A stretch of DNA of 64,000 nt from Myxococcota bacterium (GTDB lineage: Bacteria > Myxococcota_A > SURF-8 > G963663525): assembly GCA_963676915.2 (NCBI GenBank), contig CAXXVK010000024.1, positions 32,001-96,000 on the forward strand, read 5' to 3'. Positions 16,324 to 63,943 of this stretch are shown in pieces. Below the pieces are notes generated by a model, which did no database searches, was not told the DNA's origin, and was given only the letters and a program-made list of their open reading frames with translations. Each line of letters opens with the position of its first letter. Within the stretch, counting starts at the first letter, position 1. A program made the position numbers and the translations under genes.

Positions 16324-17643
16324 ATGGTCAATAACAGGCAAGACGACAGATACCGCGTTCAACTTCAGATCGATTCCAAAGGAAAAGAGGGAGTCGAAAC
16401 CTACACCACCGACGATGTATGCATCAACGGCGCGTTTTTGTTGACAAAACGCCCCAAACCGTTACGGCAGTTGATCCAGGTCGTCATTCATCTTCCCGAA
16501 GATAAAACCATCAAAACCTTTGCACAGGTGGTTTCCAGGCGAGGCGGACGGAATCTTCCCGGTCCTCGTGGGATGGGCGTCCAATTCTTCAGTATGAACG
16601 AAGACGATCGCGGACTCTGGGAAGGTTTTATCGGCAAGTTGGCGGAAGGCGAAGTAGAGGAAGAAGAAATCGTCTCCGATGTCGCTGAGACTGAAGAGGA
16701 AGACTGGTTCGAGATCGAGTTGGACGAGGAAGAGGAAATCATTGAAATCGATGATTTCGAGGAAGAGGACGACGAGGACTCTGAAGCGGATGCTCAAGCC
16801 GAGGAGAAAAAGCCGGTCGAAACTTCGGCAAACGATACTTCCCACGACCTAAGCGATGCCTTCGATGCGTACGGGGAAGAAACGGATCTCGATGACCTTG
16901 CCGCCGAAGCCGATAAAGAACTTGAAAATGTGAAAAAAGCGTCGGAAACCGACGAGGACGATGAAGAATTTGAAGTCGTGATCGACGACGAATTTATCAT
17001 CGAAGAAGAAGACGAGGACGACGACGGCATTTTATTTGATGATCCGGAATTCGAAGACGAAACGAACCAAAGCGGTTCGGTAATTACCATCGTTGAAGAA
17101 GAAAAACAGCACGTCAACCTGGATGACGGGAATTTCAGCGCCAACTTTATCGTTGCCCCGATCGATCGCAAGGAGCTACGGCAGATTTTCAAGCGGGAAA
17201 TCAGCCAGGGGACGCTTTCGGTACCAACCGAAGAGGACATCAACAAAGGCGACGAAATCCGCGTGGTTCTGGTGCATCCCTGGACGGGTGCCGAGTATTC
17301 CGTACTTGGAAAGATCAAGGATGTAAATCATAAGGATAACAATGTCGTAGGGGCCGAAATCGACTTCGACGAAATGAATCTCGTTCCGTTGGCGGCCTAC
17401 ATTCGGTCGGGACTGCTGATCGAAGGAGAAAACGAGGAAGACATCAAGGCCAACACGAGAAAGCGGCTCAATGGCGTCGTGGATTGGCTGATGGATCATT
17501 TTCAGGATGCGGAAAACCATTTCCTGTTGGGACTACTGCATTTAAGTCTTGGAGAAGGTCCGGAAGCCCGCAAAGAACTGGCCCGTGCCCTGCTGATGGA
17601 CCACAAGGTGCCGGGAGAAGCCATTGACGCCACGTTTCGATAG
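16324..17643 (+). CDS. PilZ-domain protein with long acidic linker and second degenerate PilZ-like domain
   Basis: RQDDR (RxxxR), DVCINGAFL (DxSxxG-like), GMGVQF; Asp/Glu-rich middle; ISQGTLSVPT...VVLVHP second module. Confidence 0.8.
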   Translation: MVNNRQDDRYRVQLQIDSKGKEGVETYTTDDVCINGAFLLTKRPKPLRQLIQVVIHLPEDKTIKTFAQVVSRRGGRNLPGPRGMGVQFFSMNEDDRGLWEGFIGKLAEGEVEEEEIVSDVAETEEEDWFEIELDEEEEIIEIDDFEEEDDEDSEADAQAEEKKPVETSANDTSHDLSDAFDAYGEETDLDDLAAEADKELENVKKASETDEDDEEFEVVIDDEFIIEEEDEDDDGILFDDPEFEDETNQSGSVITIVEEEKQHVNLDDGNFSANFIVAPIDRKELRQIFKREISQGTLSVPTEEDINKGDEIRVVLVHPWTGAEYSVLGKIKDVNHKDNNVVGAEIDFDEMNLVPLAAYIRSGLLIEGENEEDIKANTRKRLNGVVDWLMDHFQDAENHFLLGLLHLSLGEGPEARKELARALLMDHKVPGEAIDATFR

Positions 17644-17674
17644 TCGGTGTAAAGTCTAAACGCCACCTTGTCAC

Positions 17675-17702
17675 GTCGGACAAGAAATTTGTCCGACCAC
17701 GA
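17675..17702. repeat. REP-like palindrome, family A copy 1
   Basis: gtcggacaa-gaaat-ttgtccgac; reverse complement matches 37405-37432. Confidence 0.7.
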
Positions 17703-17708
17703 TTGACT

Positions 17709-19082
17709 TTACACACCTTCCGCTTGGATCTGCTTCAATTCCTTGCGAGTGTTTTCAAGTTCTTCATAAAACTGCTTTTCCAATGCGGGTGGGAGGCGTC
17801 GAGCCAAGATTTCGGCGTCCTTGAGGCGTTTGGAGCATCCCATCTCTACGAGAAGATCGTACAGCTCCACTTTTTCCTTGGATTCCTGCAACGGGAAAAG
17901 GTAGCCGTTGAGTTCTTCCGGTGGTTTGCCGTTGAGTACCGAGCGCAGGCGGTCGAATTCCTTTGAGGTCGGTACCGGATTGATCGGGAAGAAAATCGGC
18001 TGTGAACCCAGCAGCGCCATGAAAAGATAGGTTCGAAACAGGTGGCGCGTGGATTCGTCATCGTAACCCACAATACAGGTGGTGTGGAACTTGCCGATGT
18101 CGAACCCGATGTCTTTAAGCATCAGCAGGGTACGTATCGCCGTTTTGTGACCGTACGGTTTTTGAAAACGCTGAAGCATCGACGGATCGGTGGATTCTAC
18201 GGGAATGGTCATCTCCACCACACCCGCTTTTTGCATTTTCAACGCCAGTTCCCTCGTGATTTTGTTGGGTTGCAGACCCATGTTGAAACTGAAGGTCAAT
18301 CCGGCGTTCGTTTTGGCAACGGTATCGAATAGTTCTCCCATGGCTTCGGGAAACAACGTGACGTTCGGATCCCAGTTGCTGAAATGGGAAATTCCGAATC
18401 GTTTTTTAACGCTGAGGAAATAGTACAAAAGCTGTTTCGAGCTGAATCGTAGTTGAGGCGGATGGCGATGGTTGACGCAAAACGTGCAACGGTTCGAACA
18501 TCCCGTGGCAAGATTGAACAAGCCCAGTTCAGGCATGGTTTCGAACAGCGAGATGTCGGCGAATTCCCGTTCGGCTTCTTCGACGATACCCGAGACAATC
18601 TCGTCGGCGAGGCTTTTGTTCGCCCATTCGGGTTCGAGCGTCGGATAATTTCCCCCGAGTTTGATTTGCGTTTCGGGCCAGATTTCTTTGCAGACCTGGA
18701 TCGCTTCGTGGGTCGTCTCCCAGTTGTAGGTCAGGCAACTGCTGACCCATATTTCGTCTGGCCGTTCGGATTCCTGCAACCGGCTGCGTAGCCAGTCCAT
18801 ACTTTTTCCAAGTAAATACGAAGGTTTGATGGAATCTTTGACGCGGTTGTTTCCTGCGTGTTTCATGGAGTGCAGGGTGCAGTTGGATGGCCAGTCGCGA
18901 ACGAACGAGCCTTCCAGGTGGCCGTACTCCATCATGTCGATAAGGCGCACGCCATGACCTGCACGTTTCAGTAAGGTTCCCAACTTGAGCAGGCCGTAAG
19001 GGTAAGGCTCTGCATAATTATAGAGTTGTGGCAAGCTGACAGCTTGAACGGGAGGATGGAGAAGAAGAATCGAGCGGGCCAC
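17709..19082 (-). CDS. Cobalamin-dependent (B12-binding) radical SAM protein
   Basis: PYGLLKLGTLLKRAGHGVRLID, IWVSSCLTYNW...IKLGGNYPTL (B12 domain), GCSNRCTFC (CxxxCxxC); GTG start with AAGGA RBS. Confidence 0.92.
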   Translation of the reverse strand: MARSILLLHPPVQAVSLPQLYNYAEPYPYGLLKLGTLLKRAGHGVRLIDMMEYGHLEGSFVRDWPSNCTLHSMKHAGNNRVKDSIKPSYLLGKSMDWLRSRLQESERPDEIWVSSCLTYNWETTHEAIQVCKEIWPETQIKLGGNYPTLEPEWANKSLADEIVSGIVEEAEREFADISLFETMPELGLFNLATGCSNRCTFCVNHRHPPQLRFSSKQLLYYFLSVKKRFGISHFSNWDPNVTLFPEAMGELFDTVAKTNAGLTFSFNMGLQPNKITRELALKMQKAGVVEMTIPVESTDPSMLQRFQKPYGHKTAIRTLLMLKDIGFDIGKFHTTCIVGYDDESTRHLFRTYLFMALLGSQPIFFPINPVPTSKEFDRLRSVLNGKPPEELNGYLFPLQESKEKVELYDLLVEMGCSKRLKDAEILARRLPPALEKQFYEELENTRKELKQIQAEGV

Positions 19083-19092
19083 GATGTTTCCT

Positions 19093-20133
19093 TTAGGCTG
19101 GAGGATCGAGCAAGTAATAGTAAAGATTGAGCTTCTCAAGCCCATCCACGGGAACCGACAAACGGTTGACGACGACATGGCGACCATCGAATATTCGCAG
19201 GTTTTCGTCAAGTTTTCGGGCGGCATCTGTCGGTAGATCCCGTTGGAGATTTTCGACGGTCAGGCCGTTTTTCCACAGACTGAAATCCACTTCCGAGCAT
19301 TTGTGGATGTCGGAAGAGTCGGGGTGATCGATCCGCTGGATATAGATGAAATCGTGCAGTCCCTTGTTGCGGGGGCCGTCGAGCCATTTCCCGATCAACG
19401 GGTGCTCGGCGAATTCGGTGCGTAGCGTTGGGGCATCGAGAAAATCGTAAAGATAATACAGTTTGATCCCACGAATTCCTGTTCCTGAAAAATCCAGGCC
19501 GAGCAGATGCAAACGCTTTAGGGAGGTCTGCGGCGACAAAGGGAGACGGTTCGGGAAAAAGTGCTTTAGAAACAAAGACTTCAACTCTTGCAAGCCTTGC
19601 GGAAACTGAAAATACAGTTTGAGTCGCCACCGTTGCGGGTCGGCATCGATTCCCCACAAAAGCTGTTCGACAAGGGGAGGGCGAGCCGGTTTTAAAAGTT
19701 GGGGTGAAAACGTTTTCGTATTTGGATCGAGAGCATCGAGACAAGCGGACAGCTTTTCGAGGACACCCGGTTGTGTGCTGGTGGTAAGTTGCGGATAACT
19801 GTAGGAAAAACGATACAAAGATGCGTTGTTGTCGTACAGCGACATCGAAAATTCCAACAGGTTCGAATACTGTTGCATGGCGTCGTCGAATTGCTCCAGC
19901 AGAATCGTTTCCATGTCCCGATAGGGAGAATCGTGCAGGCCGGAGTGTTTGCGCAGTCGTTCGAAATGTTCGTGACAAGCGGCGAGATCGACGCGGCGAC
20001 AGTCTTTGAAGCAGCCCCGGATTTCGGCTTTTTCTCCCTGTCGTCGCGGGAAGCAATCGAACCACTCCCGACACAGTCGGCAACGTGCCGTAGGTAGCTC
20101 GTGAGGGCCGGGATTGTCGTAAACGGAACTCAT
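19093..20133 (-). CDS. Hypothetical protein resembling LynF/TruF/PatF (ABBA-fold) prenyltransferases, with N-terminal Cys cluster
   Basis: LEFSMSL...YRFSY, QLLWGIDADPQRWRLKLYF, LLGLDFSGTGIRGIKLYY; CRLCREWFDC...CFKDC at N-terminus. Confidence 0.5.
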   Translation of the reverse strand: MSSVYDNPGPHELPTARCRLCREWFDCFPRRQGEKAEIRGCFKDCRRVDLAACHEHFERLRKHSGLHDSPYRDMETILLEQFDDAMQQYSNLLEFSMSLYDNNASLYRFSYSYPQLTTSTQPGVLEKLSACLDALDPNTKTFSPQLLKPARPPLVEQLLWGIDADPQRWRLKLYFQFPQGLQELKSLFLKHFFPNRLPLSPQTSLKRLHLLGLDFSGTGIRGIKLYYLYDFLDAPTLRTEFAEHPLIGKWLDGPRNKGLHDFIYIQRIDHPDSSDIHKCSEVDFSLWKNGLTVENLQRDLPTDAARKLDENLRIFDGRHVVVNRLSVPVDGLEKLNLYYYLLDPPA

Positions 20134-20340
20134 GCGCGGTCTTTCATTCGTGACGATTCCGCAATTGTACCGTTGGAAGCTCGTGTCGGTCAACCGGGTG
20201 GGACCATGCAACGATGATTTTGTATCGAAGAAGTGAGAAAAACCAACGAATCCGGAATTCTTCAAGATTTGTTGGGATGTGGGGGTAACGTTTACGTGGG
20301 TTGGACGAAGAATCTCCATGCCTACTACAAAGACAAAACG

Positions 20341-20369
20341 TGCGGACGGGGATACAATCCCCGTCCGTA
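20341..20369. repeat. REP-like palindrome, family B copy 1
   Basis: cggacggggat-aca-atccccgtccg; same stem at 37500-37524. Confidence 0.7.
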
Positions 20370-20441
20370 TGTTGAGTTTTATTGTTGCGTTGATAATCCG
20401 ACGTAAAGTGAAGAATTCAGGTTGAGAGGCATCAATCAATG

Positions 20442-20539
20442 GATGGGTGCCACGGTCTTCGATTCGAAGAATCGATGGCCGTGCAACCTATTGGAATCTC
20501 ACGGCCATTGCCCTCCGGGCAAAGACCGTGCCACCCGTC
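20442..20539. repeat. REP doublet (REPIN/MITE-like) inverted structure
   Basis: Two inverted units GGGTGSCACGGTCTT-[hairpin]-ATGGCCGTG separated by 16 nt. Confidence 0.75.
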
Positions 20540-20571
20540 AATGTTGTTCCATAGTATCCCGAGCAATTTTC

Positions 20572-23196
20572 TTACGGACTATCCGAGAGCCAAAGCTCCA
20601 ATTCGTATTCGTTGCCGACCTCTTGATTGGCTCCAACCACCTGCAAATAATAGTAGGCGAAAGCTTCGACATCGTAGATGATGTGTTCGTTGTTCGATCG
20701 GCTGGTGCTGGATAGGATCACGTTGTCGTAGCCATCGTACAGGTAGATGTCCAGGTCGCCCATTGCGTGAATAAACGTCACGTAAATGGTCAGTCGTGGC
20801 AACTGGCCACCCCAGTCGCTGGAACTGACGGGAATGGCGAACCAGTCCTCATCCTCGGGACAAATATAAAGGTTGGAGGTTACACCCATCGGTGCGATGG
20901 TTGGCCGGGACGAGCTGTCGTTGTCTTCGTAAATATCTTCACGACAACGCTTGATTTCCACGCTGTAAGCCACTTCGCGCGGGGTGATCGGCGGTGGGGC
21001 GAATTTCAGATAATGACGGCCACCGGGATTGACCACCTTGTCGAAGTACACGCCTCCATCCATCGAAATCGGATTTTGCACCGAAAACAGGCTGGTATTC
21101 AGGAAATGTGTGATCATCGGTTCGTCACCGACATCGTATCGGATGTACGCCTCGACGTGCTCGTTGTCGGCGAGATCCAGCGCCAGCCAGTCTTCGTCGT
21201 CCGGGCAGATCGTCATCTCGATGGTGCCTTGCTCCATTACGATCGCCTGTACCGTGCTGTCGTTGTCCTCGTAACCGTCCTCCGCACAGATGGCATCGAA
21301 CCCCTTTGCTACATACAATGTTCCCGACGTGGCGTAGTTGGAGAGGATATAGGCATACAGCAGGTAATCTCCTGCGGTTTCAGCCGTATAGACGAGCACT
21401 TCGTTGTCCGATGTCGAATCGCTACGTTTGACTTCTTCGCCGTTGGCGTTCACCAAGCGAAGGTCGATGTTGCCGTCTTCCTGCTGGAAGGTCAGGTCCG
21501 CTCGAATGGTTTCTCCTTGATCGAGATGGTAGGAGAAGATGTCGGCGTCCCAGGGACAGAATTGAAGCGAAATGGCGGTATCGACAAGTCCCGTGGTGGC
21601 ATCTTCGGGAAGGTTGTTGGGTTCGTACTCGTCGTTGGTGCATCCGCCATAAGGCGTTACGTGAACGTTGATGCTATAGGGAGAGCGCCAGCCGGTCCAA
21701 AGGGACCGATGCGTCACATAAATAATGTGTTGGCCCCCTTCATTCAGGGGAACCGTATAGGACACCGAACCTTCGAAGGTATCTTGGTTGAAACAGCGCA
21801 TTTGCACCGGGTTGACGGGAATCAGGCAGATTCGGATGTGTCCGTACATCTCAGAGGTAAAACTGACCTCCACTTCATCCCGATCATCCAGCACGATGGA
21901 ATAGTAATCGCTGTCGTCTTCACACAAAATAAGATCCTGGAACAATCCGGCGTGCAATTCGGCGGGGTCTTCCAAAGAAGACGGTTCGTAAGGATCGTCC
22001 AGACAGGCCGGGACATATTCCTCTTCTTCCACGTCCGCAAGCTCGATTTCCGATTCTTCCTCCTCCTCGTCTTCCCAGGTTTCTTCCTCGAACTCCTCTT
22101 CGTCCGGTTGCTGTGGATCTTCGATGGTCACATACAAGCTGTAAAGATTACGCACACCGCTTCCCTGTCCGCGCACCATGACGTACGCGGTGGAGGCCCA
22201 AGTGGTTTCGTAGCTGATTTCCTCGAAATTCTCGGTCGTGTTGCTGGCCAGCAGAATGCTGTTGCTGTCATCGCGCACGGCCAGGGAGAGATCGCCGAAG
22301 GAATAGGTATAGGTGATTTTTACCGTGACGACTTTGTCCGCTCCTACTTCGAAGGAGAACCAGTCGATATCCGAAAGACAGATCGACAGGTCTTCGTACT
22401 CACCGGGATCGATCCAGCTTGCCTGACTTTGGTACTGATTGTTGGCTTCCGCATCGAAGACATCGATAGGACAAACCCAGGTGGTTTCGTCGGCGTCTCG
22501 CTCGATTTCCTCTTCCACCTCTATTTCTTCCGCTTCCGGTTCGGTTTCTTCTTCGCCCTCCCCTTCGCTTTCTATCTCTTCCGCTTCAATTTCGATTTCC
22601 TCTTCGTCGAAATCTTCGAATTCTTCCTCTTCGAAATCGTTTTCTACTTCCTCATCGGGTACTTCTTCGCAGTATGCGCCACCCGCGCCGGGGTCGATGC
22701 AGTCGCCGGGGCAGACTTCGGTCCCCGCCAGGACGCATTTCGGAATGCAATCCGGCGCGGCGGTGAACGTGTGTTCGTAACGAACCCGCTGGCTTCCGAC
22801 ACAGAGATATCCGGATTCTCCCGGAGTTCCGTTGGGGGGGAAGCAATTTCGAGGCTGCACGCCGTCACAGGTCAATTCGATTTCTTCCTCTTCTTCGGCG
22901 TCGTTTTCTTCGGTATCCGTTGCGTCCGTATCGACACCTTCTTCGGTGTCATCCAAGCTGTCGTCTTCCGTTTCGGCGGTGTTGTCGTCTTCATCCGCCG
23001 GAGTTACGGCTTCGTCCTCGTCTTCCTGTTCTTCTTCAATGTATGGATCTTCCGTGCTCTCGTCGGAAAGTTCATTTTCTTCGGAAGAATCGCCCGGAAT
23101 GATGGGGTTGGATTTCACACCATCCGTACACGCGAATGTTCCACCCAGGAAAAGCAGAAAAATAATAACGGGTAACCAGTTGATTTTACGGGTCAT
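20572..23196 (-). CDS. Large acidic lipoprotein with tandem PPC (pre-peptidase C-terminal)-like domains
   Basis: Lipobox TFAC; Glu/Asp-rich tethers; repeated C..D.YE.N / ICxxDxDW / GDLDIYLYD...S.SRSNNEHI units. Confidence 0.8.
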   Translation of the reverse strand: MTRKINWLPVIIFLLFLGGTFACTDGVKSNPIIPGDSSEENELSDESTEDPYIEEEQEDEDEAVTPADEDDNTAETEDDSLDDTEEGVDTDATDTEENDAEEEEEIELTCDGVQPRNCFPPNGTPGESGYLCVGSQRVRYEHTFTAAPDCIPKCVLAGTEVCPGDCIDPGAGGAYCEEVPDEEVENDFEEEEFEDFDEEEIEIEAEEIESEGEGEEETEPEAEEIEVEEEIERDADETTWVCPIDVFDAEANNQYQSQASWIDPGEYEDLSICLSDIDWFSFEVGADKVVTVKITYTYSFGDLSLAVRDDSNSILLASNTTENFEEISYETTWASTAYVMVRGQGSGVRNLYSLYVTIEDPQQPDEEEFEEETWEDEEEEESEIELADVEEEEYVPACLDDPYEPSSLEDPAELHAGLFQDLILCEDDSDYYSIVLDDRDEVEVSFTSEMYGHIRICLIPVNPVQMRCFNQDTFEGSVSYTVPLNEGGQHIIYVTHRSLWTGWRSPYSINVHVTPYGGCTNDEYEPNNLPEDATTGLVDTAISLQFCPWDADIFSYHLDQGETIRADLTFQQEDGNIDLRLVNANGEEVKRSDSTSDNEVLVYTAETAGDYLLYAYILSNYATSGTLYVAKGFDAICAEDGYEDNDSTVQAIVMEQGTIEMTICPDDEDWLALDLADNEHVEAYIRYDVGDEPMITHFLNTSLFSVQNPISMDGGVYFDKVVNPGGRHYLKFAPPPITPREVAYSVEIKRCREDIYEDNDSSSRPTIAPMGVTSNLYICPEDEDWFAIPVSSSDWGGQLPRLTIYVTFIHAMGDLDIYLYDGYDNVILSSTSRSNNEHIIYDVEAFAYYYLQVVGANQEVGNEYELELWLSDSP

Positions 23197-28566: not shown

Positions 28567-29213
28567 GGAATGCTCCGAAATTCGAAAAACGGTAAAACAG
28601 TTCGGAATTATATCGTGGGGAACAAGCAAAGATGTGAATAGATTCGAAACTACTCTGAAATTCCGAATCGTGCAACTTCATCGGAAATTCGGGACTTCTC
28701 CCATTTTTCCCATGTATGAATGGGAATACCTTAATTTGGAAGGACGAACGACGTCGGGAAATTCCTCGAACTGTGTCGATGGACATTTTCGAAAATTGTC
28801 GGGTGAAAATCCGTCAAACCTGATGGATTTTTCCAAAACTCCCTTTCAAGGGAACAATACCCCGAACGACATTGAAAAAGAGGTCGAAATCAAAGCGGTC
28901 CGTGCCACCTCTCGGCGCTTGAATTTCTCTTAAAAAAGCTCTAACTCCATGGTATCAGTGGAGTTACTCAAGCCTTTGGAAAAAGGGTGGACATTTTCCT
29001 ACGATGCGTTTAAATAAGCGCTGAATTCATTGACTGTTTTTCCAAGGATGGACTTCACTTCATGCTTTGGAACGGGAAGCCCATTCCAAGTGACTGGTGC
29101 ATCCGGCAGATATCTTTCGAAGGCTGCATTCGTTAGAAAAATCACCGGATCTTGCCGTAACCCGTCGGTTCGCCGACCCTCCAGAAGCGAAAAAAAATCG
29201 CGGGGAGAAAATC

Positions 29214-30214
29214 ATGGATCGAGACAGCTGCTTCGCCGCCGAAATCAGTGCCCCAGATATCAACAAAATGGTTCTGATGACGGGACGTTCCTACCCGGAA
29301 TATGCGGAAAAAGTGGCCAGGCATCTTGGTGTAAAACTTCAGATCGCCAAAACCAAGGAATTCAGCAACGACAACACCTTCGTCAAGCTCCCTTGCAACG
29401 TCCGAGGGCGGGATGTCTACATTATTCAGACCTCTTCCGCACCCGTGAACACCCATTTCATGGAACTCTGCATGATGGTCCGGGCCTGTGTCACTTCGTC
29501 GGCCAAGTCCGTGAACGTCATCACGCCGTATGCGTTTTACCTCCCGTAGCGAGAAAAAAGACCAGCCCCGCATCTGCATCACGGGCCGTCTTTGCGCGGA
29601 TTTCCTCGAATCCGCCGGAGTTACCCGCGTGATTACGCTCAACCTCCATGCGCAAGCCTTCGGAGCGTTTTTCAGCGTGCCGTTCGATCAGCTCTTCGCC
29701 GATGACGTGCTGTGCGACGCCCTGCACGAACACATGCCGATCGACAACTCGGTTATCGTCACACCCGATGTGGGTGGCGCGAAACTGGCGGAACGCTTTT
29801 CGAAATTCCTCGACCTTCCGCTGGCCTTTCTTTACAAAAAACGCACCGACAACAAGGAAAATCCGGTCATCACCGCCTGTGCGGGCGATGTCGCCGGGAA
29901 AAAACGCCATTATCGTGGACGACGAAATCAACACGGGCGGCAGCTTCATTTCCGCCATCGAATACCTGAACAACCTGGGGGCCAAGAGCATTTACGGCTG
30001 TGTCATCCATCCGGCCTTCGCACCGGGCGCCCTCAAGCGCATCTGTGATACGGATATCGCCAAATTGCTGGTGGCGGACTCTTTCCCGATCACCGAACAA
30101 TGCCCGGAGAAACTCGTGGTCGTCAGCACGAGCGAACTGGTAGCCAAAGCCATCAAGCAGATTTTCAACAAAAAATCGATCACCGGACTGTTCCCCCACC
30201 ACGACCGCTTCTGA
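29214..30214 (+). CDS. prs: Ribose-phosphate pyrophosphokinase, two apparent frameshifts (~29540, ~29900)
   Basis: FSNDNTFVKL..NVRGRDVYIIQ, LHAQA.GAFF, VTPDVGG, IIVDDEINTGGS spread over three frames. Confidence 0.92.
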
Positions 30215-33289: not shown

Positions 33290-34558
33290 ATGAAAGTAAC
33301 GGTAATCGGCGGAGGCTCGACCTATACTCCGGAACTGATCGATGGTTTTATTCGTAGTGCGCAGAAGCTGGACCTGACCGAAGTCGTCTTGTTGGACAAT
33401 GACCCCGAACGGTTGAAAGTCGTTGGAGAATTTTCTCAACGCATGGTGGGACACGCCAAAGCTCCTTTCACCGTTGCGCTGACCGACGATCGTGCTTCGG
33501 CCCTCAAAGGTGCGGATTTCGTGCTGACCCAGATCCGCGTCGGTGGACAAAAAAGGCCGCCACAAGGATATCAAAACTCGGTCACGCTCACGGCCTGATC
33601 GGCCAGGAAACCACCGGTGTCGGCGGGTTCGCCAAAGCCTTGCGCACCATTCCGGTGATGCAGGAAATCGCAAGAGATATCAAGGACTACTGCCCCGATG
33701 CCTGGGTTGTAAACTTCACCAATCCTTCCGGACTGATTACGGAATCCCTGCATTGGATGGGTCTGTCGCGTGTCGTCGGACTGTGCAACATTCCGATCGG
33801 TGCGGTGATGGATCTCGCACTGTACCTCCAATGCGACCCGGACCGGATCACCATCGATTACGTCGGTCTCAACCACCTGTCCCTGGATTCGAAAAAGTCT
33901 TCCTGGACGGCGAAGACGTCACCGAGCGCATCGTCAACGATCTGGCCGAGCAAAAAGGTCCGGCGAACATTCCCGAGTTGGAATACGATCCCGCTTTCGT
34001 ACGAGCGCTGGGCTTCATTCCCTCACCCTACCTGCGCTATTTCTACGCCACGAGCGATATGCTCGGAAAACAGTGGGCCAAGCCGAAATCTCGCGCTCAG
34101 GAAGTGATGGAGATCGAAGATGAACTGCTGAAAAATGTACAAGGACGAATCGGTCGTCACGAAACCGGAAGCGCTTTCCAAGCGCGGCGGAGCGTTTTAT
34201 TCGAAAATCGCCATCGATCTGGTAACGTCGCTGATGGGTCTCAACGATCAGACCCACATCGTCAACGTGTTGGCAGGCGATTGTGTCGATGGTATCGGTG
34301 CGGGGCAAGTCGTTGAAATCTCCGCTCAAATCACGAAAGATAAAATCGTACCATTGAAAGTGGACCCGCCCGAGCCGAAAATCCTCGGACTGATGCAATC
34401 CGTCAAAGCCTACGAAAACACTAGCAGTCGAAGCGGGTATTTTACGCAGCTACGATGCCGCCCTGATGGCGCTGGCGACACATCCGTTGTGCGGTCCCGA
34501 AAAGGCCAAACTCGTCCTGGACGATCTTGTGAAAATCAACAAACTGGAACTTAGATAA
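33290..34558 (+). CDS. Glycoside hydrolase family 4 (6-phospho-beta-glucosidase-like), multiple frameshifts
   Basis: MKVTVIGGGSTYTPEL, QIRVGG, GQETTGVGGFAKALRTIP, NFTNPSG, GLCN, GLNH, PSPYLRY, KRGGAFYS. Confidence 0.92.
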
Positions 34559-34584: not shown

Positions 34585-37312
<2,728 letters not shown>

Positions 37313-37404: not shown

Positions 37405-37432
37405 CGTAGGTCGGACAAATTTCTTGCCCAAC
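37405..37432. repeat. REP-like palindrome, family A copy 2 (degenerate)
   Basis: cgtaggtcggacaaatttcttgcccaac, versus reverse complement of 17675-17702 cgtggtcggacaaatttcttgtccgac. Confidence 0.65.
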
Positions 37433-37499
37433 ACAGCTTGCTGACAACGTGGTTTGTTTTTGAGCTTCAATAATTTCAAGAAGTTACAGACCTGTACGA

Positions 37500-37524
37500 T
37501 GGACGGGGATTGCATCCCCGTCCA
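37500..37524. repeat. REP-like palindrome, family B copy 2
   Basis: tggacggggat-tgc-atccccgtcca. Confidence 0.7.
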
Positions 37525-37640
37525 CATAGTTTTCCTCAAAACCTCAAAACAAAACGTGAAGAGCAGGATACAATCCTGCTCCATCTGTGAGTCGAGCAAA
37601 AAAAAAGCCCTATTTACGAAAGCTTATAGGATAAAAGTTT

Positions 37641-63123: not shown

Positions 63124-63943
63124 GATCCTTCTCTTTCGCGAACGGTTCGTTTTGGGTCTTTATACCATACCTACCAGGGATTTGGCCATGGCTTCCCTTT
63201 TCGGTGTGGAGTTTTCGCAATGTCTCATACTTGGTCCATCCTTCAAGCGTTTGGCATGCAGCCCAGCGCCATCCCCACACTCCTTCGAAAAAACCAGCTT
63301 GAAACACATAGCTTTTCACACCACGCCATGCCGGACGAACCCAGCGGCTTCCCAAAGGATAACGGCGTCCGTTCTCGAACATCGCACGAGCGGCTTGAAG
63401 TCCGTAACGCTCTGATTTTTCACGTAAATGCTCCAATCCTCCGGGAGGGTTGTGTTCGATAGGATGAACGAGGGAGCGCCATTTTCCTTGCAACTCCACA
63501 CGGTCGTGGGGTTCAACAGCAGGATTCCAACAGCCTTTTTCCGTACGAAACAGACGTTTTTGCCGATTGGGCCACCACCCACCGTAGCGAATCCAACGGT
63601 CTTCGATTCGAGACCGTACCGGAAATCGAAACCCGTCGTTTCGGGGTTCATCAGCAAGAGTTTGGAGAATTTCCTCGGCCAACAAAGGACTTACGTACTC
63701 GTCCGAGTCAAGATTCAAGATCCATTCTCCCCGAACGAGGCGGCGACCGAATTCTTTCTGATGATTGACACCCTCGAAAGGATGCTCCATCACACGACAC
63801 CCCAGACGAGAGGCAAACTCTCTCGAACCGTCTACGCTCCCTCCATTTATCGCCACGATTTCATCGCAGAAGGCAAGACTCGTCAGGCAGCGTTCGAGCG
63901 TATCTCTATTGTTTTGGAAAATCACCAGCGCGGAAAGCTTCAT
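63107..63943 (-). CDS. Glycosyltransferase family 2 (KdtX/WaaE-like)
   Basis: LSALVIFQN...LERCLTSLAFCDEI, WILNLDSDE, YGGWWP, GFFEGVWG. Confidence 0.9.
   Translation of the reverse strand: MKLSALVIFQNNRDTLERCLTSLAFCDEIVAINGGSVDGSREFASRLGCRVMEHPFEGVNHQKEFGRRLVRGEWILNLDSDEYVSPLLAEEILQTLADEPRNDGFRFPVRSRIEDRWIRYGGWWPNRQKRLFRTEKGCWNPAVEPHDRVELQGKWRSLVHPIEHNPPGGLEHLREKSERYGLQAARAMFENGRRYPLGSRWVRPAWRGVKSYVFQAGFFEGVWGWRWAACQTLEGWTKYETLRKLHTEKGSHGQIPGRYGIKTQNEPFAKEKDHDPIR

Follow-up and report, generated by a model that had tools for sequence, protein, structure and literature searches.

A gene pair in the genome of a Myxococcota bacterium encodes a predicted prenyltransferase of the ABBA (alpha-beta-beta-alpha) or PT-barrel (prenyltransferase-barrel) type, here called open reading frame (ORF) A, and directly downstream of it a radical SAM (S-adenosylmethionine) enzyme, ORF B. 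The pair lies in a stretch of 64,000 nucleotides (nt), referred to as the window (GenBank assembly GCA_963676915.2, contig CAXXVK010000024.1, positions 32,001 to 96,000 of the forward strand), and the coupling of the ORF A family to radical SAM enzymes of the ORF B type is conserved. Judged by modelled fold and residues, ORF A is an ABBA prenyltransferase that is a member of neither the cyanobactin F family (LynF/TruF/PatF) nor the DMATS family. The reading that we prefer, with a probability of about 45%, is that the two genes are a tailoring module of type-4 His-Xaa-Ser (Hxs) peptide-maturation clusters, in which ORF A would prenylate an HxsA4-type precursor whose gene lies elsewhere, and the product would be radical-modified by ORF B. 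The module is regarded as detached in the window, because in other genomes its relatives belong to large His-Xaa-Ser clusters that include HxsA4-type precursors. The activity, substrate, cofactor and step order given for the pair below are those that we infer.

ORF A (19093..20133, minus strand) starts with ATG and encodes 346 amino acids (aa), and ORF B (17709..19082, minus strand) starts with GTG and encodes 457 aa with an N-terminal B12-binding-like Rossmann domain. As stated in a preliminary description of this DNA, the 346-aa gene ends 10 nt before the GTG of a radical SAM gene with the motif CSNRCTFC, and all three motif series quoted there for ORF A were found; the gap (19083..19092, minus strand) is exactly 10 nt long and has an AGGA stretch resembling a ribosome-binding site ahead of the GTG. 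Since the homologues P0003 of ORF A (346 aa, 60% identity) and P0005 of ORF B (464 aa, 86% identity) have matching lengths, both frames were considered intact. A 448-aa ORF A from upstream TTG/ATG starts and a 505-aa ORF B from a longer start were dropped on codon score and homologue lengths, the codon score of the ORF A extension (-0.19) being that of non-coding DNA. The GC content of the pair is that of the genome (0.52), and the codon score of ORF A is low, 0.016 versus 0.11-0.23 in neighbouring genes. Homology between the two proteins was rejected (probability 2%).

On its own, ORF A matched neither a Pfam or NCBIfam model nor any PDB sequence of relevance; a family profile and fold searches succeeded. 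With ORF A as query, phmmer found 112 hits at E<=0.001 among 1.84 billion representatives, from which the weak rows P0111, P0124 and P0125 were removed as repeats or fragment before motifs were counted, and the family alignment, with fusions and fragments excluded, contains 95 full-length proteins. The family, which is unnamed, comprises about 110 sequence clusters and has a mean column identity of 25%. When the 95-member profile was compared with solved sequences, nine were found at E<=10, eight of them ABBA enzymes, and the best-scoring were the peptide prenyltransferases KgpF (8YE0, E 4e-5), 9VTD and LimF, so that the F-family kinship proposed in the preliminary description is borne out at the level of the family profile. 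The AlphaFold (AF2) model of ORF A (predicted local distance difference test, pLDDT, 93.7) has ten antiparallel strands in alpha-beta-beta-alpha repeats, and in a fold comparison with 48,161 chains the 19 with Z>=8 were all ABBA prenyltransferases (Z 14.6-19.3), the next fold reaching 7.1; model and fold search thus agree on the ten-stranded barrel that had been expected. The best structural match was DciF (Z 19.3, root-mean-square deviation (rmsd) 3.4, 261 residues aligned), followed by PagF (Z 18.9), CymD (Z 18.9) and PatF (Z 18.5), and the top Foldseek match was 5-DMATS (E 1.6e-9). Structurally, ORF A is therefore tied between the F family and DMATS, and among its ESM Atlas neighbours DUF5838, PTase_Orf2 or Trp_DMAT is annotated on 12-41% of members. 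Membership of the LynF/PatF family itself, as first proposed, did not hold up: the curated models TIGR04445 and PF19156 did not hit ORF A at E<=1 and hit a single relative among 95 weakly (E 0.0048 and 0.015). The DMATS models TIGR03429 and PF11991 likewise did not match ORF A, and matched 6 and 7 of the 95 relatives weakly (best E 5.4e-5 and 0.003).

The conserved residues of ORF A are E94, S96, R108, G161, K172, Y174, H209, D214, K224, Y226, R267, D283, R324 and Y338. In the 95 aligned members K172, Y174, Y226 and Y338 are each invariant, E94 and R108 are kept in 94 each, H209 in 88 and K224 in 93, the last at a position where F enzymes have the Glu of an E-L-Y strand. K224 gives ORF A a DMATS-like K-x-Y pair. 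In hidden Markov model (HMM) alignments to 9VTD and KgpF, which map positions by sequence profile, E94, R108, D163 and K172 line up with the E, R, D and K of the F family. According to the PatF structure paper, Arg, Asp and Lys bind the donor, and the inactivity of PatF is ascribed to loss of the Asp and Lys (PMC3668578); ORF A has all three donor-binding residues (R108, D163 and K172). The Glu equivalent to E94 is described as catalytic in AuraA (PMC11696170), and for the F family a Mg2+-coordinated diphosphate site is described (PMC13290415). On modelled fold and residues, the conserved columns being of the active-site type, ORF A is probably an active prenyltransferase that would act in the manner of an F-family or DMATS enzyme.

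ORF A has an N-terminal four-cysteine module (20011..20082, minus strand; C18, C21, C27 and C41; Cx2Cx5Cx13C), for which the spacing suggests a probable metal (Zn) or iron-sulfur (Fe-S) site. The module is not covered by the part that ORF A has in common with solved prenyltransferases (46-346 in most rows). The spacing of its Cx2Cx5C part resembles that of Fe-S motifs. The module, as Cx2Cx5Cx10-14C, was found in 44 of the 101 family members scored, and its four Cys are invariant in 11 aligned module segments. Searches with it against PDB and Pfam gave nothing significant (best E 2.1 and 0.07, respectively). It is no marker of pairing with ORF B, as five unpaired loci also carry it.

Loci were sampled with a degenerate DNA pattern in one scan over GTDB genomes; because this pattern matches 53 of the 110 known family proteins, the sample is partial and biased towards it. 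Among the 15 loci obtained, L004 was a chance match and was removed, leaving 14 true family loci. An ORF B-type gene directly follows the prenyltransferase gene in five of them (L001, L002, L006, L007 and L012), with a 4-nt overlap in four and 2 nt between the genes in one, as compared with 10 nt in the window. L006 and L007 are close kin, which leaves about four independent pairs, and the radical SAM gene of L001 is cut by the contig end. Fusions to radical SAM domains of at least three kinds were found in five of the 112 phmmer hits: P0049 and P0068 join the prenyltransferase to the ORF B subfamily itself (matching the ORF B profile at E 2e-192 and 3e-155, respectively), P0056 and P0120 to other B12-type enzymes, and P0096 to a PA0069-like enzyme. 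In a quick tree of 49 rows, paired prenyltransferases stand on both sides of a split with 99% support. The linkage of homologues to radical SAM genes in other genomes, on which the preliminary description had staked its proposal, was thus recovered in five loci and two ORF B-type fusions. In L012 (1861-18381) a single prenyltransferase gene is surrounded by at least seven radical SAM genes, mostly of the B12 type. Among these is a further ORF B-like paralogue that is more distant (28% identity), and no HxS precursor was seen in the DNA fetched for this locus.

Neighbourhood annotation covered 81 of about 149 predicted genes across the 14 loci. A radical SAM gene is present in 11 loci, and in nine of them there is one with HxsC4 as its best model, which is the commonest neighbour; the same nine loci form one blastp cluster. 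HxsB was found above its cut-off in L008 only (494.8 versus 370), and HxsA4 in L007 (68.7 versus 55), where the protein has 13 HxS repeats and ends in Trp. A second precursor-like end, truncated, with five HxS repeats and a Trp tail, was found in L001. Both precursor-bearing loci carry the pair of prenyltransferase and radical SAM genes, and their prenyltransferases are two of the four closest to ORF A among the 14 loci (34-35%). Type-4 Hxs clusters with a member of the ORF A family were found mainly in Myxococcota. On this basis the ORF A family probably serves the Hxs pathway. The names HxsA4 and HxsC4 already exist in NCBIfam; PADLOC 2023, which is older than the HXS paper discussed below, matched none of ORF A, ORF B and the L007 HxsA4. 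Among the titles and opening parts of abstracts of open-licence papers, no report of a prenyltransferase in HXS clusters and no description of the ORF A family was found. As to a cyanobactin context, no PatA/PatG protease or PatE precursor is near the window pair, and the 81 annotated neighbours include one S8 protease (L005) and no match to a cyanobactin model.

Other genes recur in these clusters. In L001 and L007 a gene for DAHP (3-deoxy-D-arabino-heptulosonate 7-phosphate) synthase/chorismate mutase lies less than 5 kb from the prenyltransferase gene, Rieske and PhyH oxygenase genes adjoin the prenyltransferase gene in L010 and L014, and PhyH is also present in L005. U32-like proteins are encoded at L006:3167-5590, L006:6817-8094, L007:1603-2796, L007:12156-13433 and L007:14694-17144; two have weak Pfam matches (E 1e-4 to 3e-4), and the set, which includes an apparent U32-radical SAM fusion, lies near DAHP synthase/chorismate mutase and HxsA4. 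Prephenate is described as the oxygen donor of U32 enzymes (PMC10990095), and a prephenate-dependent peptide hydroxylation branch is possible. A gene of about 300 aa that has no name and is matched in neither Pfam nor NCBIfam adjoins an HxsC4-like radical SAM gene in four of the 14 loci (L005:12391-13272, L008:7351-8301, L010:11312-12235 and L014:14058-14972), and genes for nitrogenase-like NifH and NifE/D-type reductases are present in two clusters (L002:1-3281 and L008:10775-12916).

A search with the L007 precursor (P0127) gave 77 proteins, and with the query included 71 of the 78 have at least three tandem HxS repeats. The repeats reach the C-terminus in 49 HxsA4-like proteins, 35 of which end in Trp and 7 in Tyr. 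The HxsA4-like precursors (L007:1068-1502; relatives P0128-P0204) have a common leader motif, F-L-x-x-E-E-G-K-I, which we take to recall Flp-type prepilin leaders, and their named matches include Omnitrophota. Export of HxsA4 by the twin-arginine translocation (Tat) pathway, considered for the RR motif of P0127, was dropped, as only 6 of the 71 repeat proteins have RR and it overlaps the general leader motif. F-family enzymes are reported to prenylate Trp, Tyr and His (PMC11002830, PMC7253389, PMC12371840); LimF geranylates His and KgpF geranylates Trp (PMC11002830), and PalQ, which is unrelated, is described as prenylating a C-terminal Trp (PMC13290415).

In the proposed mechanism, ORF A and ORF B would be co-translated. 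ORF A would bind a prenyl diphosphate by its ring of Arg, Lys and Tyr residues, ionise this donor and alkylate an aromatic side chain held by E94. To judge from the neighbourhood, the acceptor would be an HxsA4-type precursor, likeliest at its C-terminal Trp (Tyr in some) and otherwise at a His of the repeats; we put the terminal Trp/Tyr of such a peptide forward as a tentative choice. In the last and weakest step, ORF B would form a 5'-deoxyadenosyl radical and modify that product too, either C-methylating the peptide or the prenyl group with the help of cobalamin or, without cobalamin, carrying out a radical step of the AprD4 kind. The outcome would be a His/Ser-repeat peptide that is heavily modified and carries a lipid. 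The pair may thus add a fatty anchor to HxS-repeat peptides; a lipid anchor is suggested by the L007 HxsA4, which is without a peptidoglycan-binding Pfam domain.

ORF B carries the radical SAM cluster motif CxxxCxxC as CSNRCTFC (18477..18500, minus strand; residues 195-202, with C195, C199 and C202), which is invariant in 16 of 16 aligned sequences, and it passes PF04055 with 54.7 bits (cut-off 29.5). Its subfamily is small and distinct, with an NWDPN motif (12 hits among 8,000 candidates scored). No NCBIfam model came near its cut-off among the 16 families at E<=1, the best being BchE with 34 of 481 bits; the AprD4 family NF033070 did not match ORF B at E<=1, and the fusion P0068 reached 21 of 500 bits. 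The subfamily profile matched no solved sequence at E<=0.01. The ORF B model (pLDDT 90) has AprD4 as its best structural match (6FD2, Z 24.4, rmsd 3.0, 374 residues aligned), followed by MgmA (Z 20.9), TsrM (19.2) and OxsB (18.5), and residues 1-170 match corrinoid proteins with Z 10-13. A 2026 review describes AprD4 as having a Rossmann-like domain and yet binding no cobalamin, and sees no clear structural features that separate methylating from non-methylating members (PMC12931638). Methylation by ORF B is therefore only the likeliest option. The cobalamin-dependent methylation of the preliminary description was accordingly overstated, with the B12-binding model PF02310 scoring 29.9 bits, below its cut-off of 32.1, and with AprD4, for which no cobalamin is reported, as the best fold; use of cobalamin by ORF B nevertheless appears likely.

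Several observations weigh against the assignment of the pair to the Hxs pathway. The HxsC4-like proteins are all under the curated 500-bit cut-off (best 403), a precursor was found in only two of the 14 loci, and HxsD was undetected among the 81 annotated neighbours. In the 64-kb window there is no HxS-repeat ORF, no second CxxxCxxC ORF and no HxsB or HxsC, and when every ORF of the loci was compared with the window by tblastn (E<=1e-15), only ORF A, ORF B and one glycosidase matched, so that no other cluster gene is seen there; the earlier observation that no precursor or protease lies near the pair agrees with this. The density of radical SAM genes in these genomes has no matched background; as controls, L004 has no CxxxCxxC ORF over 200 aa, and the window has one in 64 kb. 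The terminal Trp that is conserved across HxsA4 proteins may serve another enzyme. Nine of the 14 loci are without an ORF B-type partner in the DNA fetched (two of them being contigs under 5 kb), among them L011, the closest relative with context (36%), where the prenyltransferase is by itself within 20 kb taken from a whole chromosome. P0012, a relative of ORF B, and L011 are both on contigs of 5,975,757 nt, which would point to a split arrangement on one chromosome. The nearest relatives also differ, those of ORF A being in L006/L007 and that of ORF B being P0049, which indicates that partners have been exchanged. Within the family, the position of D163 is Ala in 62 of 95 members. The main text of the HXS paper contains none of the terms prenyl, cobalamin, B12, HxsC4 or Myxococc- (PMC13128918).

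That the pair makes a small molecule is somewhat unlikely. ORF A would then prenylate a chorismate- or prephenate-derived aromatic or free Trp or His, in the manner of CloQ or bacterial DMATS enzymes, ORF B would methylate or rearrange the product, and the Hxs genes would merely lie in the same radical SAM-rich islands. CloQ and the B12-radical SAM enzyme CloN6, encoded in one cluster, provide a precedent, and the DAHP synthase/chorismate mutase of L001 and L007, the oxygenases beside the prenyltransferases of L010 and L014 (with PhyH in L005), the Foldseek match to 5-DMATS, the tie of CymD with PagF and the Lys in place of the acidic residue of the E-L-Y strand are all consistent with such a product. 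CloN6 is listed among the enzymes treated in the review cited above (PMC12931638). The family profile, however, finds its best solved sequences among peptide prenyltransferases, the HxsC4-like enzymes remain the commonest neighbours, and DAHP synthase/chorismate mutase could equally supply prephenate for the U32-like genes of L006/L007, although the short L001 contig was seen without a U32 gene. We also consider it unlikely that ORF A is a non-transferring PT-barrel scaffold like PatF, which would bind peptide or diphosphate and act, through the four-Cys module, as an accessory subunit of the radical SAM enzyme. The fusions to several kinds of radical SAM domain, the Fe-S-like spacing of Cx2Cx5C, the loss of D163 in most of the family and the absence of a prenyl diphosphate synthase among the 81 annotated neighbours would fit this role, but in a family with 25% mean column identity conservation is highest at the catalytic Glu and at the inward-facing Arg, Lys and Tyr, which is the opposite of PatF; moreover, over half of the family is without the Cys module, and prenyl donors are supplied by primary metabolism.

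The preliminary description had envisaged a self-sufficient two-gene unit for prenylation and methylation of a cellular substrate (protein or lipid), independent of Hxs genes. The pair does stand alone in the window among housekeeping and envelope genes, with a promoter-like site, the prenyltransferases of L011 and L015 are without Hxs neighbours in the DNA fetched, and none of the many radical SAM genes around the L012 pair is HxsC4-like. Four of the five other pairs, on the other hand, are beside HxsC4-like genes, and P0012 together with L011 suggests a pathway scattered over one chromosome; as the relatives are part of large His-Xaa-Ser clusters in which HxsA4-type precursors occur, the idea of a minimal stand-alone pathway was given up as the leading one, and we regard it as quite improbable. 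Least of all do we expect the pair to be a stranded, functionless remnant of a lost cluster. There are no partner genes in 64 kb, REP-like repeats lie on both sides and the ORF A codon score is low, but both frames are full length with all conserved residues, agree in length with homologues at 60% and 86% identity, and have the GC content of the genome. The assignment to type-4 Hxs maturation is kept as the preferred reading. A wider form of it, which we regard as doubtful, is that a lipid-anchored form of anti-phage HXS operates in Myxococcota and their relatives. In it, prenylation of the C-terminal Trp of an (HxS)n effector would replace the peptidoglycan anchor of HxsA, the ABBA enzyme would have its own metal or Fe-S module, and an AprD4-like enzyme would modify the lipid or adjacent residues.

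The pair is flanked by hairpins. On the left, a REP-like (repetitive extragenic palindromic) hairpin of GTGG plus palindrome (17675..17700, stem 17675-17697) lies between ORF B and a convergent PilZ gene, outside the module proper; its region (17644-17712) folds with z -3.7, and none of 200 shuffles was as good. On the right, upstream of ORF A, are a REP-like hairpin of a second type (20337..20373, z -6.6), which also scored as terminator-like, and a third, long stem-loop (20439..20542, z -6.7) between ORF A and the upstream gene for a PPC-repeat protein, each again with 0 of 200 shuffles as good. The latter is nested and 104 nt long, and 16 nt of its sequence are repeated at 63596. REP elements are defined as intergenic palindromes with a GTRG tetranucleotide that occur in several copies, and the window has two such types with two copies each: a related copy of the left type is at 37407-37433 and a second copy of the right type at 37497-37528, both near unrelated genes. 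The palindromes said to bracket the pair are thus real as hairpins but not specific to it, since the two sides are different repeat types with copies elsewhere, and they do not define the two-gene unit. A composite mobile element bounded by them was dropped for the same reasons, and ORF A had no match in plasmid and phage collections.

A weak sigma-70-like promoter match (10/12; 20164..20193, minus strand) lies some 30 nt upstream of the start codon of ORF A; four promoter-like sites were observed versus 2.1 +/- 1.5 in shuffles, so this match is not above chance. The genes around the pair encode a PilZ-domain protein (16324-17643, convergent with ORF B; long acidic linker, TIGR02266-like but under the cut-off), the acidic PPC-repeat protein on the other flank (20572-23196) and a HEAT-repeat protein. 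The PilZ-domain and PPC-repeat proteins, taken with the likeness to L011, would suit a Myxococcota-like host. An intact L011 homologue of the glycosidase aligns with the window in three pieces and two frames, and alanyl-tRNA synthetase-like and PRPP (phosphoribosyl pyrophosphate) synthetase-like genes, named from translations, are likewise consecutive ORFs. These split genes (33290-34554, 35125-37312 and 29030-30214) indicate indel errors in the assembly, by which ORF A and ORF B are unaffected.

Peptide prenyltransferases of the ABBA type are in demand as biocatalysts, and most of those known come from cyanobactin pathways. The present family adds about 110 clusters unseen by Pfam and NCBIfam, a four-Cys module that solved members have not shown, and fusions to radical SAM enzymes in several cases, and since the neighbourhood gives a candidate substrate, a Trp-terminated HxsA4 repeat peptide, the chemistry of ORF A is open to testing with synthetic peptides. 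ORF B offers a clean case for whether AprD4-like 'B12-binding' proteins use cobalamin. The block of phage DNA entry by HXS has been shown only recently, and a prenylating branch, if true, would extend HXS to another phylum with another anchoring logic; a lipid-anchored HXS, if true, would join peptide prenylation to phage defence, with a physical link between the prenyltransferase and radical SAM chemistry. Taken singly, all of the parts are similar to known ones.

In comparison with the cyanobactin F family (KgpF 8YE0, DciF 9LWV, PagF 5TTY, LimF and PatF), ORF A has the same PT barrel (Z 18.5-19.3) and compact size, E-x-S-x11-R-F with identical spacing, G-x-D followed by K, H-L-G-x-D and a final N-L-Y-Y strand. 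It differs in its structural identity of 10-13%, the Lys for Glu in the E-L-Y strand and the extra four-Cys module, and its family differs in the lack of cyanobactin genes, the coupling or fusion to radical SAM enzymes and its occurrence mostly in Myxococcota. With the bacterial DMATS/indole prenyltransferases (CymD, 5-DMATS, 6-DMATS and PriB) it shares the barrel, the conserved Glu and repeated K-x-Y strands, whereas the profile E-values are 0.1-0.6 versus 4e-5 for KgpF and the gene context is like that of RiPPs (peptides made on the ribosome and altered after translation). ORF B is like AprD4, MgmA/QCMT (9CCB), TsrM and OxsB in its Rossmann domain, radical SAM barrel and length of about 450 aa, and unlike AprD4 and class I B12-radical SAM enzymes in its identity of 14-18% and in having no NCBIfam model near cut-off. 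The HXS system HxsABCD is described as a four-gene anti-phage system, 99.7% from Pseudomonadota, that acts at phage DNA entry, with a canonical HxsA that has a peptidoglycan-binding domain as its anchor and shows a mass gain of +8 Da (PMC13128918). Some of the loci of the ORF A relatives share with it, and with the type-4 models HxsA4 (NF038313) and HxsC4 (NF038332), the HxS-repeat precursors, HxsB and HxsC-like radical SAM enzymes. Unlike the tested HXS, they add a prenyltransferase, B12-type radical SAM enzymes, U32-like proteins and oxygenases, and the L007 HxsA4 has no peptidoglycan-binding Pfam domain and ends in Trp.

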